Shown here: piece after piece, positions 11,559-58,539 of the stretch | How the letters are laid out: each line of letters begins with the position of its first letter | How positions within the stretch are numbered: position 1 is the first letter of the stretch | Assembly: GCA_949295085.1 (NCBI GenBank) | Contig: CASFJS010000005.1 | Span: 136,991 to 200,990 of the forward strand | Source: an uncultured Pseudomonadota bacterium | GTDB taxonomy: Bacteria; Pseudomonadota; Alphaproteobacteria; RF32; CAG-239 | DNA length: 64,000 nt | Direction: 5' to 3' | Translations under genes and position numbers: made by a program | Notes under the pieces: model-generated | What the model was told of the DNA's origin: nothing | The model's input: only the letters and a program-made list of their open reading frames with translations | Databases searched by the model: none

Positions 11559-12251
11559 ATGTATAATCTTCCTAATCTGCTGACAATATCGCGTATTGTC
11601 GTTATTCCGGTTATCTTTTTGTCGGTTTATATTACATCAATGTGGTGGGCCGTATTTACGGCAATTTTGTTTATCGTGGCGTCCATTACCGATTATTTTG
11701 ACGGCTATTTGGCACGGGCCCGCGGCGAGACTTCGGCTCTCGGGCGGTTGTTGGATCCGATTGCCGATAAGCTGTTGGTTACGTCGGCTTTGGTGGTGTT
11801 GTTGGCCAAACCCGGAATGGTCGAGTATAAAATCAGTTTTATTCCGGTTATTGTTATTCTTTGTCGTGAGATACTGGTTTCCGGTTTGAGGGAATTTTTG
11901 CGTGAAGTTAATGTCGGGTTGCCGGTGACGCGTTTGGCCAAGTGGAAAACGGGTTTTCAGATGACGGCGCTGTCAATGATGTTGTTGAAAGGTGTTTGGT
12001 ATTGGGGCGGTATCGGCGAGTTTTTGTTATGGATTGCCGGTGTTTTGACCTTTTTGACGGGGTATCAGTATTTTCAAAAGAGTCTGGATTATATTTGCGA
12101 GACCGAAAAGTGTGCCAAGGTTCCGCCAATGCCCAAATTGCTTAAAACAAAACCGGTTGTTAAGGCCGAAAAGGCTTTGTCGCGTCAAAAAAAGCCTGCC
12201 GGTAAAAAGCCTGCCGGTAAAAAGAAAAAAACAATCAAAAAAGCCAAATAA
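11559..12251 (+). CDS. pgsA: CDP-diacylglycerol--glycerol-3-phosphate 3-phosphatidyltransferase with Lys-rich C-terminal tail
   Basis: NLPNLLT, DYFDGYLAR...GRLLDPIADK; uvrC-pgsA synteny; start placed at the ATG after AAGGA. Confidence 0.96.
   Translation: MYNLPNLLTISRIVVIPVIFLSVYITSMWWAVFTAILFIVASITDYFDGYLARARGETSALGRLLDPIADKLLVTSALVVLLAKPGMVEYKISFIPVIVILCREILVSGLREFLREVNVGLPVTRLAKWKTGFQMTALSMMLLKGVWYWGGIGEFLLWIAGVLTFLTGYQYFQKSLDYICETEKCAKVPPMPKLLKTKPVVKAEKALSRQKKPAGKKPAGKKKKTIKKAK
12189..12218 (+). repeat. 15-bp tandem duplication encoding KKPAG x2
   Basis: aaaaagcctgccggt repeated twice. Confidence 0.9.
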
Positions 12252-47237: not shown

Positions 47238-47872
47238 TTATTATGAAAAGAAGAGAATTTATAAAAACAACTCTGGCGGCAGCCGCTTTGTCGGTTTTGC
47301 CGCGGGTTTCGACAGCAACAAACGGAGGTAAAATGAAAATTTTGGTCTTAACCGGAAGTCCGCGCAAAAACGGTAATTCCAACACATTGGCAGACAATTT
47401 TATCAAAGGCGCTGAAGAAGCCGGACATGAGGTCGTGCGCTTTAATGCGGCTTTTAAGGAAGTCCATCCCTGTATCGGTTGCAACTCCTGCGGTATGAAC
47501 GGGCCTTGTGTTTTTAAAGATGATTTTGAGTTTGTCCGGCAGCATATTGTTGATGCCGATATGGTTGTGTTTGTCACGCCGATGTATTATTTCGGTATTT
47601 CGGCGCAGCTCAAAGCCGTTATTGATCGCTTTTATGCCGTTAACGGACAAATTCACCGTCCAAAAAAAGCCGCTTTATTGATGACGTATGCAAATACGGC
47701 GGCTTTGGAGGCTGAACCGATTAAATCGCATTACAAAACCTTGTTAAATTATCTTGGTTGGACGGATGTCGGGCAGATTATCGCTTCCGGTGTGTGGCCG
47801 GTCGGCGCCGTTAACCATACCGAGTATCCGCGACAGGCTTATGAATTGGGAAAATCATTGAAGTTGGCATAA
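47234..47872 (+). CDS. Flavodoxin family (NADPH-dependent FMN reductase / iron-sulfur flavoprotein-like) with Tat-like signal
   Basis: KRREFIK twin-arginine motif; GSPRKNGNS, CIGCNSC..C, TPMYY. Confidence 0.9.
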   Translation: MIIMKRREFIKTTLAAAALSVLPRVSTATNGGKMKILVLTGSPRKNGNSNTLADNFIKGAEEAGHEVVRFNAAFKEVHPCIGCNSCGMNGPCVFKDDFEFVRQHIVDADMVVFVTPMYYFGISAQLKAVIDRFYAVNGQIHRPKKAALLMTYANTAALEAEPIKSHYKTLLNYLGWTDVGQIIASGVWPVGAVNHTEYPRQAYELGKSLKLA

Positions 47873-47968
47873 ATATGAAGAATTTGTTGGGAGGAACAGG
47901 CATAGATCTCGACAGGACAGATCAAATACGACGGAACAGAGGATGTTGGTGGTTTGCCAAATTTGCGG

Positions 47969-47997
47969 TTGACACGGTAAGAATTTTGCATTAAAAG
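47969..47997 (+). promoter_or_regulatory. Promoter for the tRNA-like element and tRNA-Val
   Basis: TTGACA-N17-TAAAAG. Confidence 0.55.
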
Positions 47998-48011
47998 CTT
48001 GTGTGGTAAGA

Positions 48012-48248
48012 GGGCGTGTAGCTCAGTTGGGCAGTCGCGCTGTGTTCACATCGCAGAGGCTTGAGGCAGAAAACGGCTCCGGCGGAGCGGTTTTCAACGA
48101 GAGGCGAGAGTTTGTTAGTTTATGAGCAAGCTTTTAGCGTCGCGAGATAAACGTTACAAACCGAGTGACCGCAGCGAGTTAGCGATTGGCTTTTGAGAAA
48201 AAGCCAGAGCTTAGGAGCCAGACCACAAGCTTGCTTGTGACCGATGGC
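48012..48248 (+). other. tRNA-Val 5' copy fused to a multi-hairpin structured element
   Basis: 48012-48059 nearly duplicates the tRNA 5' part; four hairpins follow; no acceptor 3' strand or CCA. Confidence 0.8.
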
Positions 48249-48274
48249 AGGGGTATATGATTATAGATTTTTTG

Positions 48275-48351
48275 GGGCGTGTAGCTCAGTTGGTTAGAGC
48301 GCTGTGTTCACATCGCAGAGGTCACAAGTTCGAGCCTTGTCACGCCCACCA
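48275..48351 (+). tRNA. tRNA-Val (anticodon CAC)
   Basis: GGGCGTG/CACGCCC acceptor stem, D-arm AGCTCAGTTGGTTAGAGC, anticodon loop TTCACAT, T-loop GTTCGAG, encoded CCA. Confidence 0.97.
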
Positions 48352-48353
48352 TC

Positions 48354-48384
48354 AAAAAAAACTCGGTTTAGGCCGAGTTTTTTT
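48354..48384. terminator. Bidirectional terminator
   Basis: aaaaaaactcggt / gccgagttttttt. Confidence 0.85.
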
Positions 48385-48405
48385 GGTTTTTTATGACGAT
48401 ACACA

Positions 48406-49431
48406 TTAATCTTCATAGGGTTTGCTTATTTTGCGGTAGATATAAACGGCGGTCGGGACACCGAGCAGCATACCCCACATTCCGATGAGGCTGTGTGCAA
48501 TATAGAGAATAATCAGGGTCATAACCGGATTGATGTGCATGACGGATGATACAATACGCGGATTTAGGACATAGGCCTCAAGCATATGGATAACGATAAT
48601 CATGGCCAAGGCCCAGAGACCGAGCTCAATGCCGCCGGTATTGACCGCCATCAAAACAATCGGCACGGATGAAATCCACATTCCGAGAACCGGAATCAAG
48701 CCGCACATAAAGACAATGGTACAGAGCAAAGCAATGGCTTTGATACCTATAAAGTGTAAGCAGATGGCCGTGAGCGTGGTGTTGATGACCGAAATCATTA
48801 ATTGGGCACGAAAGTTTTCACCGACGACTTTGGCAAACAGCAAGATGCTGTCGGCAGTTTCGCGATAAGATTCGGCCAGACGGGTAAAGCGCAGGCGGCG
48901 CATGCCTTTTGACAGAATCGGCAAATCAAGCATGATTAAAAAACTGAACAAAACAGCTAAGAAAAACCAGCCGAAATAATGTACGCCTTTTTCCAGCATG
49001 CCACGGACGATATTCCAGGCGCTGACAATCATACTTTCGGGAAGCATGGCTTCTTTGATTTGCGGCAATATGGGAGCAACCAGTTCGTTGGTGCCGAGAT
49101 TGGCGTTAAGCCAATTGCGAACGGATTCAAAACTTTGCGGCAGTTGTTCGGTAAAATTGATGGTTTCGGACAAAAGACGCGGCGGAATGTAAACCAAAAA
49201 AGCCGATACGGCCATCAAGAACAATAAATAAAGAAAAACGACCAGCATTCGGCGGTTTAGATGGTATTTGCGCCGCAGGTGGTGCGTGATTCCCGAAACG
49301 ATGAAACACATGATAAACGTGATGAATACCAGTCCGAACATATTGCGGAAAAGATAAAGCAGCCCCATAAAAGCTGCCCAGATAAAATAGACCCGGTTGA
49401 TACGTAAAAATTCGGAAATATTAAACGTCAT
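48406..49431 (-). CDS. AI-2E (PerM-like) family transporter
   Basis: Multiple TM helices, GLIPVLG, LEAYVLNPRI, GMWGMLLGVP. Confidence 0.9.
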   Translation of the reverse strand: MTFNISEFLRINRVYFIWAAFMGLLYLFRNMFGLVFITFIMCFIVSGITHHLRRKYHLNRRMLVVFLYLLFLMAVSAFLVYIPPRLLSETINFTEQLPQSFESVRNWLNANLGTNELVAPILPQIKEAMLPESMIVSAWNIVRGMLEKGVHYFGWFFLAVLFSFLIMLDLPILSKGMRRLRFTRLAESYRETADSILLFAKVVGENFRAQLMISVINTTLTAICLHFIGIKAIALLCTIVFMCGLIPVLGMWISSVPIVLMAVNTGGIELGLWALAMIIVIHMLEAYVLNPRIVSSVMHINPVMTLIILYIAHSLIGMWGMLLGVPTAVYIYRKISKPYED

Positions 49432-57714: not shown

Positions 57715-58539
57715 ATGTTAAAACCTTTGATGGAAGGAAAAAGAGGCCTGATTATGGGGCTGGCTAACGATAAGTCCATCGCCTGGGGGATTGCTCAGGC
57801 TTTGAACGAACACGGGGCGCAGCTTGCGATATCGTATCAGAACGAGGCTTTGGAAAAAAGAGTTAAACCTTTGGCGGCGCAGTTGGACAAGGAGCCTTTG
57901 TTGTTGCAATGCGATGTGTCCGACAGCGCCAGTATGGAGGCGTGTTTTAAGGAATTAGCCGCTCAATGGGGCAAGATTGATTTTTTGGTGCACGCGATTG
58001 CTTTTTCGGACAAAAATCAACTGCGCGGGCGGACGATTGATACCACGCGCGATAATTTTGCGATGACAATGAATATTTCGTGTTTTTCGTTTTTGGAGGC
58101 CTGTAAGTATGCCTCGCCGTTGATGACGGACGGCGGTGCGGTCGTTACCCTGACCTATATGGGTGCGGAGCGGGTTTTGCCGAATTATAACATCATGGGT
58201 GTGGCCAAAGCGGCGCTGGAAGCGGCGGTACGTTATGCGGCGATGGATATGGGCGAGCAAAACGTGCGGGTTAATGCGATTTCGGCCGGACCGGTTAAGA
58301 CTTTGGCGGCCTCGGGTATCGGCGATTTTAGAAAAATGCTGCATTGGAACGCGTTGAACTCAGCATTGGAGCGCAATATTACGCCGGAAGAAGTCGGCTA
58401 TGCGGCGCTCGGGCTGTTGTCGGACTGCGGCACGGGGATTACCGGCGAGGTTTTGCATGTTGACAGCGGCTACCATATCCAAGGAATGCTCCGGATGAAG
58501 AATATTGATAAAGATGTTGAAATTTTAACCGAAGGCTAA
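57715..58539 (+). CDS. fabI: Enoyl-ACP reductase (NADH)
   Basis: GLANDKSIAWGI, YNIMGVAKAALE, NAISAGPVKTLA. Confidence 0.97.
   Translation: MLKPLMEGKRGLIMGLANDKSIAWGIAQALNEHGAQLAISYQNEALEKRVKPLAAQLDKEPLLLQCDVSDSASMEACFKELAAQWGKIDFLVHAIAFSDKNQLRGRTIDTTRDNFAMTMNISCFSFLEACKYASPLMTDGGAVVTLTYMGAERVLPNYNIMGVAKAALEAAVRYAAMDMGEQNVRVNAISAGPVKTLAASGIGDFRKMLHWNALNSALERNITPEEVGYAALGLLSDCGTGITGEVLHVDSGYHIQGMLRMKNIDKDVEILTEG

Follow-up and report, generated by a model that had tools for sequence, protein, structure and literature searches.

Why should an intact tRNA gene be preceded by a broken copy of its own 5' half, and what is the structured sequence that lies between the two? The question is raised by a 263-bp unit at positions 48012-48274 of a 64,000-nucleotide stretch of DNA (the window) from an uncultured alphaproteobacterium, contig CASFJS010000005.1 of assembly GCA_949295085.1. 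The unit is made up of a tRNA-like head, a hairpin-rich body, a small hairpin and a spacer, and it ends directly in front of tRNA-Val(CAC), the sole tRNA gene called in the window. The first 48 nt of this gene are repeated in the head with 91.7% identity over 48 columns, and the differences are confined to the D arm, which reads TTGGGCAGTCGCG in the head and TTGGTTAGAGCG in the gene. Direct repeats of a tRNA segment are thus found at both ends of the unit (48012-48059 and 48275-48322), with the tRNA gene restored. An original prediction, made from the letters alone, had described the head with its altered D arm, four helices, and the lack of an acceptor 3' strand behind them, all of which were confirmed in the sequence. 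It had also listed several possible identities for the unit, the best-fitting of which proved to be a non-autonomous element that targets tRNA genes. On balance we consider it probable that positions 48012-48274 are one unit of a gene-less selfish cassette, acting at the level of DNA, that persists in tRNA genes by virtue of a duplication of one side of the gene it breaks.

The body belongs to a family of sequences, here called family A, that is closely tied to tRNA genes. The genome to which the window belongs (G000; 1.47 Mb in 37 contigs, 41 tRNA genes, 100% complete) contains seven copies, and all seven adjoin a tRNA gene (Val-CAC, Val-GAC, Pro-CGG, Pro-GGG, Asn, Ser-CGA and Gly-GCC). The second copy, which lies before tRNA-Val(GAC) on contig C8, is 86% identical to that of the window; it is 1.5 units long and has lost the sequence from the D loop through the first ten bases of the body, leaving a head of 16 nt. 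DNA searches covered 36 further genomes of the genus and detected the body in 32; of 24 genomes that belong to other families in the same class, one had it. In a collection of genomes from 185,579 species, 36 loci matched an exact 22-nt core pattern, all 36 of them in metagenome-assembled genomes (MAGs) of uncultured (alpha)proteobacteria, and many of these are labelled as coming from animal or human guts. Pooling all fetched loci (given L numbers here) with G000 yielded 93 matches to a profile hidden Markov model (HMM), corresponding to 73 distinct copies. A tRNA gene is present in the fetched locus of 61 copies, within 122 nt for 51 of them and across arrays for the remainder; eight of the 12 copies without one lie at the ends of the fetched DNA. 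The host tRNA genes represent at least 11 amino-acid types. Most copies (46 of the 61) lie downstream of the tRNA and 15 lie upstream, as in the window. The upstream copies are all on the strand of the tRNA, the downstream copies divide into 17 on the same and 29 on the opposite strand, and none are divergent, so that overall 32 bodies are on the same strand as their tRNA and 29 on the opposite one. The original prediction had asked whether copies sit beside other tRNAs with matching heads. They do sit beside tRNA genes, and most family-A copies carry a tRNA 3' tail instead of a 5' head. For example, same-strand downstream copies in G000 end in the tail of their tRNA, matching it at 25/25 nt at tRNA-Pro(CGG) and at 21/21 nt at tRNA-Ser(CGA).

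Near-identical bodies at different tRNAs, empty sites and arrays point to a mobile DNA cassette. The bodies at tRNA-Ala(CGC) (L018, genome G025) and tRNA-Gly(GCC) (L023, genome G032) are identical at 151 of 157 positions (96%), and the flanks of these two loci are unrelated and tRNA-specific, each with its own local repeat of 62-70 nt. A tree of 64 bodies requires at least 26 changes of tRNA amino-acid type. Clades that mix tRNAs received SH-aLRT values of 98% (Ala/Gly), 97% (Asn, Pro and Gly of G000) and 97% (Arg/Lys), and the Val-CAC body of the window is nested among Val-GAC bodies (99%). The tRNA-Val(CAC) site is occupied in G000 and in genome G018, where the body is 96% identical, and is empty in genome G009 (L062). 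At tRNA-Val(GAC), nine empty loci (L055-L057, L059, L061 and L064-L067) have the promoter TTGCAA-N17-TATTAT directly before the tRNA, and the occupied locus L049 has the same native promoter, now before the head. Tandem arrays were also common, with three identical units at L033, two each at L019 and L085, and 1.5 units at L046-L048 as well as on C8 of G000. The assembly shows one unit in the window, and a 293-nt contig from a DNA sequencing run (X2) reads 48084-48274 and then 48012-48113, with ends that overlap by 30 nt and a depth of 4.76, like that of the flanks. This cycle in the assembly graph is either a tandem array or a 263-bp circle. At L055, a unit of a sister family has introduced a foreign terminator along with a tRNA tail, and the native terminator is found distally, an order that integration through tRNA homology predicts.

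The head is the displaced 5' part of the target and not a part of the conserved element, because it varies with the neighbouring tRNA and carries the native promoter. The same features led us to discard the proposal of a SINE-like (short interspersed element-like), tRNA-headed RNA or tRNA-derived retroelement: the head is specific to whichever tRNA lies next to it, measures just 16 nt on C8 and gives way to 3' tails elsewhere. The repeat extends upstream of tRNA position +1 by only 1-16 nt. The unit is therefore without a full promoter, and transcription of the tRNA must pass through it. A TTGACA promoter in front of the head had been proposed. The TTGACA hexamer is present, is followed at 17 nt by a weak -10 element, and is kept in the G018 orthologue (L042), but no promoter was called in 47850-48450 by the promoter rule of the scan tool.

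In dead heads at both Val-CAC and Val-GAC loci of several genomes, the same unusual form of the D arm turns up repeatedly, with CAGTCGCG or CAGCCGCG instead of TTAGAGCG. It was seen at 48028-48040 of the window and at L011, L013, L046, L047 and L049, and in the 95%-identical orthologue of G018 the D arm is normal. The unusual form could be a product of gene conversion or of selection against recombination between head and tRNA.

How the body is joined to the tRNA follows a clear rule. A duplicated tRNA segment accompanies the body at every tRNA gene that it occupies. When copies are read in body orientation, the body is always preceded by GG(G) of tRNA sequence and starts with CT(T/G/C)GAGG; it ends in AGA, after which the tRNA sequence continues from 0-3 nt past the break. 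In the window the head terminates in GG (48058-48059), which is the insertion point. On one side of the body lies a long part of the tRNA, running to the end of the gene and beyond it, into the leader and native promoter in upstream units or into the terminator in downstream units. The side that faces the intact tRNA is built differently: 4-13 nt of tRNA sequence are followed by a turn of 2-6 nt and by an inverted copy of the unbroken target that spans the break by 2-8 nt. Inverted matches of at least 9 nt with at most one mismatch were found on the tRNA-facing side of 40 of the 44 full-length copies, with a mean length of 11.7 nt compared to 7.4 nt in shuffled flanks, and in a rough test the computed junction was also spanned by the inverted match in 29 of these 40. 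The small hairpin of the window unit had been taken for a copy of the T stem of the tRNA; it instead consists of a 7-nt copy of the target and a 9-nt inverted copy of the unbroken target (Table 1). Nor is the inverted copy in general a by-product of T-stem symmetry, because it is perfect at sites without a natural palindrome, such as GACTTCTTGCACC on the anticodon side of tRNA-Pro. Breaks were located in the variable loop (Val, Pro-CGG), at position 37 of the anticodon loop (Pro-GGG, Pro-TGG), at both ends of the T loop and at the border of T stem and acceptor (Asn, Gly). An inverted copy made from the target is a feature that any mechanism must explain.

Table 1. Parts of the family-A unit in the window and the elements next to it.
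Feature	Position	Strand	Basis and remarks
Promoter-like site	47969-47997	+	TTGACA 47969-47974, 17-nt spacer, weak -10 TAAAAG 47992-47997; read by eye
Head, displaced 5' part of tRNA-Val(CAC)	48012-48059	+	Acceptor 5' strand, altered D arm, intact CAC anticodon arm, AGG; blastn
Family-A body, 163 nt	48060-48222	+	HMM and covariance model matches (171.8 bits), covariation; order: left end CTTGAGG, H1, ACGAGAGGCGAGAG, long helix H2, conserved core, H3, right end
Helix H1	48069-48095		
Helix H2	48110-48161		Long helix
Conserved core	48162-48185		CGAGTGACCGCAGCGAGTTAGCGA
Helix H3	48187-48206		
Right end of body	48207-48222		GAGCTTAGGAGCCAGA
Hairpin cacaag-CTTG-cttgtg	48224-48239		Fourth helix of the unit
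Short direct target copy CCACAAG	48223-48229	+	tRNA sequence just 3' of the insertion point is TCACAAG
Hairpin turn CTTG	48230-48233	+	Read from sequence
Inverted copy CTTGTGACC of the unbroken target GGTCACAAG	48234-48242	+	9 nt; reverse complement; reaches 2 nt past the insertion point
AT-rich spacer/leader, 32 nt	48243-48274	+	Read from sequence
Intact tRNA-Val(CAC)	48275-48351	+	ARAGORN, Rfam (tRNA, 67.4 bits); first 48 nt are the compensating duplicate
Intrinsic terminator of tRNA-Val(CAC)	48355-48384	+	Terminator scan

The original prediction had made its case depend on structural conservation, and this was found. A covariance model (R1) built from eight close copies identified 59 copies in 50 sources, and covariation was assessed on the model-based alignment, which has 57 distinct rows and 36 pairs. 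Because the fit to the model favours structure in such an alignment, a control with slid partners and the number of pair types, both of which are less affected by model fitting, were considered as well. Pair cells were paired in 93.5% of cases, compared to 75.3% in shuffles and 38-43% with slid partners. Changes on both sides were present in 29 of the 36 pairs, values that none of 500 shuffles reached, and compensatory cells numbered 334, as opposed to 84 in shuffles. In this alignment, three body helices covary strongly. The long second helix with its extension and the helix around H3 are well supported, helix 1 is bordered by an A run and a T run, and a GGCG/UGACC helix is invariant and hence gives no covariation signal. 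A 24-nt unpaired core is nearly invariant. When RNAalifold was applied to a plain MAFFT alignment of 42 bodies, only 5 pairs were recovered with the hairpins misaligned, and the model-based alignment was used instead. Outside the GGCG/UGACC helix, only 23 G-T and 19 A-C cells were counted among about 1650. Since G-T is no commoner than A-C, the stems are almost purely Watson-Crick and carry no strand signal, which fits hairpins that act in DNA or on either strand better than it fits a typical RNA. The fold z-scores of 48012-48274 were -2.34 for the + strand and -3.78 for the - strand.

Family A is not the only such family. At least three other unrelated, gene-less body families of about 80, 100 and 130 nt occupy the T loop of partial tRNA copies, show the inverted-copy design of family A and are often stacked with it at one tRNA (loci L055-L057, L066, L036, L031, L054, L048, L064 and L033). 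In G000, bodies of this kind were noted on C1 at about 58097-58216 and on C27 at about 11730-11880, and the genome has two non-A units at tRNA-Pro(TGG) and tRNA-Gly(CCC).

If the unit is a selfish cassette, the body would enter a tRNA gene as a DNA insertion, and the tRNA segment beside the break would be duplicated or brought along, which would restore a functional gene adjacent to the inserted body. The duplicated side would be the 5' part with its leader in the window unit and the 3' tail with its terminator elsewhere, and duplication of one side is the reason why an insertion could survive in essential tRNA genes. The 263-bp unit might then form tandem copies, or it might loop out and insert again by way of its homology to the tRNA. 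The inverted copy would be templated from the local target at insertion and could pair with both flanks of the body as a splint, with the enzyme acting in trans. In the upstream layout, the unit would be transcribed as a leader of the tRNA-Val precursor and released by RNase P. The strand-varied orientation of the bodies and their nearly pure Watson-Crick helices fit such a role at the DNA level.

Several results weigh against this reading. One is that domain searches of G000, extended to the genus for the Y1 family, linked no recombinase, transposase or nuclease with the element. A linked HUH or GIY-YIG nuclease had been envisaged. G000 contains no match to the Y1 (HUH) transposase (PF01797), no TnpB and no small GIY-YIG gene; its sole GIY-YIG domain is in an open reading frame (ORF) of 605 aa, which from its size we take to be UvrC-like. 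Y1 transposases occur in only 11 of 56 genus genomes, and the six Y1 loci that were fetched contain neither a tRNA gene nor the element. For the IS110/IS1111 DEDD transposase (PF01548), G000 has only a sub-threshold match (22.6 bits) inside a 1417-aa ORF of the BadF/BcrA type. The single reverse transcriptase of G000 (377 aa, C5:60632-61237, L073) has a phage lysozyme gene nearby and is not near any element. Serine recombinases gave seven matches in G000, including three paralogues of about 198 aa. The two whole copies (C5:43859-44452 and C11:39077-39673) fall into the Mpi master DNA invertase family (NF009949, 298-300 bits against a cut-off of 272), which also speaks against them as the missing enzyme.

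Some of these recombinases deserve a remark in their own right. The Mpi-type paralogues suggest that G000 has invertible promoters; the copy on C11 lies 100 nt from tRNA-Pro(GGG), and the third is apparently split between the contig ends of C29 and C21, so that the family call covers the two whole copies only. G000 also has three tyrosine recombinases. Two are Xer-sized, judged from their length, and one is in an island at a tRNA-Trp 5' part (C32; L071 about 2766-2805, - strand), where the tRNA sequence runs into the anticodon arm and is followed by a 376-aa phage-type integrase and a Prim-Pol gene. No complete tRNA-Trp is among the 41 tRNA genes that ARAGORN called in G000, and the intact gene probably lies in an assembly gap. 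On C10 (41261-45898), a 4.5-kb AT-rich island behind tRNA-Ser(GCT) has 17-nt repeats of the tRNA tail at its flanks and encodes a 191-aa resolvase-type serine recombinase, which may be the integrase of this island.

Also on the negative side, no known mechanism could be fitted to the flank duplication and the inverted copy, and several downstream loci (L015, L057 and C25) have an extra distal inverted copy that would require further events. Insertion or loss between near-identical genomes was not caught at this locus; the 95%-identical G018 orthologue is occupied too. In a synteny comparison that covered 2.1 kb of the window, the flanks were too diverged or rearranged for an empty tRNA-Val(CAC) site with the same neighbours to be recognized. 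Three specific mechanisms were considered and rejected. An RNA-guided, bridge-RNA-like process was set aside because the inverted copy is on the 3' side of the body in upstream units and on its 5' side in downstream ones. A hairpin that serves as the crossover site of a serine recombinase would have half-sites oriented unlike those of the natural T arm, and short target-site duplication by staggered cuts does not hold as a general rule given that the two terminators differ in L055.

The remaining difficulties for a selfish cassette are those that favour a functional RNA, and of the alternatives this is the one that we take most seriously, even if we hold it to be unlikely. The unit would be a noncoding RNA module that is co-transcribed as a leader or trailer, is cut by tRNA-processing enzymes by means of its tRNA-derived ends, works as a small RNA or controls how the tRNA matures, is maintained by selection, and has spread mainly by descent. 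Conservation of the covarying helices and of the 24-nt unpaired core would fit such an RNA as well. Moreover, all 15 upstream copies are sense to the tRNA and lie behind its promoter, so that the idea of a processing leader may stand as a secondary property of the element; its companion in the original prediction, a decoy, gained no support. RNA libraries also cover the body. In expression data that consist of assembled contigs only, three libraries from two studies gave contigs of 95-99% identity over 48028-48251, which stop at 48240-48251 just behind the hairpin. They leave the flanking genes uncovered and do not reach the tRNA, whereas contigs from DNA runs cover the flanks; in such data a lack of cover does not count as a finding. 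These data hint, if only weakly, at joint transcription of head, body and hairpin as a tRNA leader that ends just behind the hairpin. A precedent exists in Escherichia coli, where rttR is annotated as a small RNA and where, according to PMC8144298, the tRNA-linked repeats (TLRs) of rRNA operons are transcribed, processed and bound by Hfq and CsrA. However, 29 of the 46 downstream copies of family A are antisense to the tRNA, with a terminator between the two. G-U pairs would be nearly absent from the RNA and no commoner than A-C, near-identical bodies are present at different tRNAs, and the sites are often empty in relatives. Finally, one flank design is common to at least four body families that are unrelated to each other, which argues for an insertion process rather than for one RNA function.

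A second alternative, which we regard as improbable, retains mobility and replaces the mechanism. The unit would be a minimal integrase-dependent element, with attP and hardly anything else on a circle of about 260 bp, which is mobilised by the tyrosine or serine recombinase of a helper island or phage; the body would then supply the arm sites. It is background knowledge that islands and prophages that target tRNA genes have partial tRNA repeats at attL and attR, and that their integrase-less derivatives form cis-mobilisable elements. Like these, the insert in the window is flanked by direct repeats of a tRNA segment, an element can bring in its own tRNA tail and terminator (L055), and units can accrete in tandem at one tRNA (L033, L036). 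The contig of run X2 may represent a circle junction, and G000 does have tRNA-linked islands that bear recombinases (the 376-aa integrase at tRNA-Trp and the 191-aa serine recombinase at tRNA-Ser). What tells against this proposal is the range of the targets. A single family uses tRNA genes of at least 11 types and breaks them in no fewer than three places, namely in the anticodon loop, in the variable loop and at either end of the T loop, and no single att site read by a protein fits them all. In addition, the helices covary, unlike the arm sites of proteins, and the 22-nt core pattern had no matches in a collection of viral contigs. To our knowledge, E. coli K-12 has the same layout without any such recombinase helper. 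Decay after a local duplication of the tRNA region, or misassembly at this tRNA, might be suggested by the slightly diverged copy of its 5' part in the head. Both are highly improbable given that an independent genome shows this arrangement too, at 95-96% identity (L010/L042), that the junctions are covered by contigs from several independent sequencing runs, and that the body is one of 73 distinct copies in a family whose structure is conserved.

Among known systems, a selfish cassette of this kind most calls to mind the TLRs of E. coli (the 178-bp tyrT-tyrV repeats and RtT RNA/rttR, RF00391), which are likewise gene-less, hairpin-rich, 100-180 nt long, tied to tRNA genes, often tandem and equipped with a copy of a tRNA end. 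PMC8144298 dates their first description to 1978 (citing Egan & Landy), counts 22 TLRs at ten K-12 loci (citing Rudd 1999), and states that the 3' end of every E. coli TLR shares 18-19 bp with the tRNA or rRNA gene just upstream. It characterises TLRs as one to five tandem units immediately downstream of a tRNA in a tRNA or rRNA operon, and describes their function and origin as not known beyond the binding of Hfq and CsrA by three rRNA-operon members. A further study reported raised coverage of the tyrT-rttR region, and its authors attribute this to RNA/DNA hybrids and not to circles (10.1101/2024.07.17.603846). In our own reading of the K-12 tyrT-tyrV-rttR locus, each unit opens with an inverted copy of the T arm, which a turn connects to a short direct piece; then come the body, placed in the T loop, and the tail of the tRNA. 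The order of inverted copy, turn, short direct piece, body and long tRNA part is thus common to K-12 tyrT and the window, a layout that is our reading and not a published definition. Family A also forms tandem arrays, of up to three units. The window unit departs from the TLR pattern in that it lies upstream of tRNA-Val(CAC), duplicates the 5' 48 nt in place of the 3' tail and breaks the variable loop; 46 of the 61 family-A copies with a tRNA in the locus do lie downstream, and those on the same strand have the 3'-tail copy. A further difference from the E. coli TLRs is that the family-A body is found in both orientations. At the sequence level, RF00391 (45-bit threshold) had no match in the window and none at E<=1 in nine related alphaproteobacterial loci, compared to four matches of 133-137 bits in E. 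coli, and model R1 found nothing in E. coli (best score 2.3 bits). Family A belongs to the TLR class by design and not by sequence, with no detectable homology.

No description of front-side units was found in the two papers in which the term "tRNA-linked repeat" occurs, and the upstream, 5'-duplicating layout is a new mirror-image variant of the TLR-like design. TLRs have been known since 1978 and are still without an accepted function or origin. To these, family A adds many copies with near-identical bodies at different tRNAs, pairs of empty and occupied sites, a clear junction rule and the 5'-duplicating mirror form. Together these features argue that TLR-type elements are mobile DNA and rely on reconstruction of the tRNA they strike. 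A bolder extension, to which we would assign little credence for the present, is that TLRs from E. coli RtT to family A form one widespread class of gene-less tRNA-gene parasites; these would move between tRNA genes possibly by means of host enzymes, with the inverted copy remade at each insertion as a splint or guide for exit and entry of the body, and with either half of the tRNA being rebuildable, as the front-side units would illustrate. Since E. coli K-12 shares the layout, the question is open to bench work. The findings also carry a warning for annotation, as a partial tRNA copy with a hairpin next to a tRNA gene is not necessarily the scar left by a lost island.

Two other classes of mobile DNA share features with family A. 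Integrative elements that target tRNA genes are alike in their insertion into the gene, the restoration of the lost segment by a duplicate, tandem accretion and the partial tRNA copy at the far end. Unlike them, the window unit has about 260 bp without a gene, a body inside the partial copy and an inverted copy of the target, and its family uses many tRNA types. Palindrome-associated elements (PATEs) derived from IS200/IS605 and REP/RAYT repeats are likewise short, non-coding and multi-copy, with subterminal covarying hairpins, insertion 3' of a short motif (here GG), no short target duplication, and a complement of the cleavage site beside a hairpin. Family A differs from these in its long duplication of tRNA flanks, its strict tie to tRNA genes and the lack of a Y1 transposase in G000. 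A literature search on miniature or non-autonomous tRNA-targeting elements, tycheposons and partial-tRNA satellites yielded nothing that fits.

As for the locus itself, no ORF of at least 60 aa is present between 47873 and 48405, and hence no recombinase gene lies inside the unit. The neighbouring genes encode an FMN reductase (upstream) and an AI-2E-type transporter (downstream). Neither ARAGORN nor Rfam called a tRNA within 48012-48274, where no Rfam family reached its gathering score either, and in 47850-48450 none apart from tRNA matched at E<=10. The spacer between hairpin and tRNA is 23-32 nt long in related upstream units. Lastly, the putatively intact tRNA-Val(GAC) of G000 (C8:52314-52386; L002 1695-1767) is only 73 nt long and scored 63.8 bits with the Rfam tRNA model; its D loop is 4 nt shorter than that of relatives, GCTCAGGTAGAGC as opposed to GCTCAGGTGGTTAGAGC.

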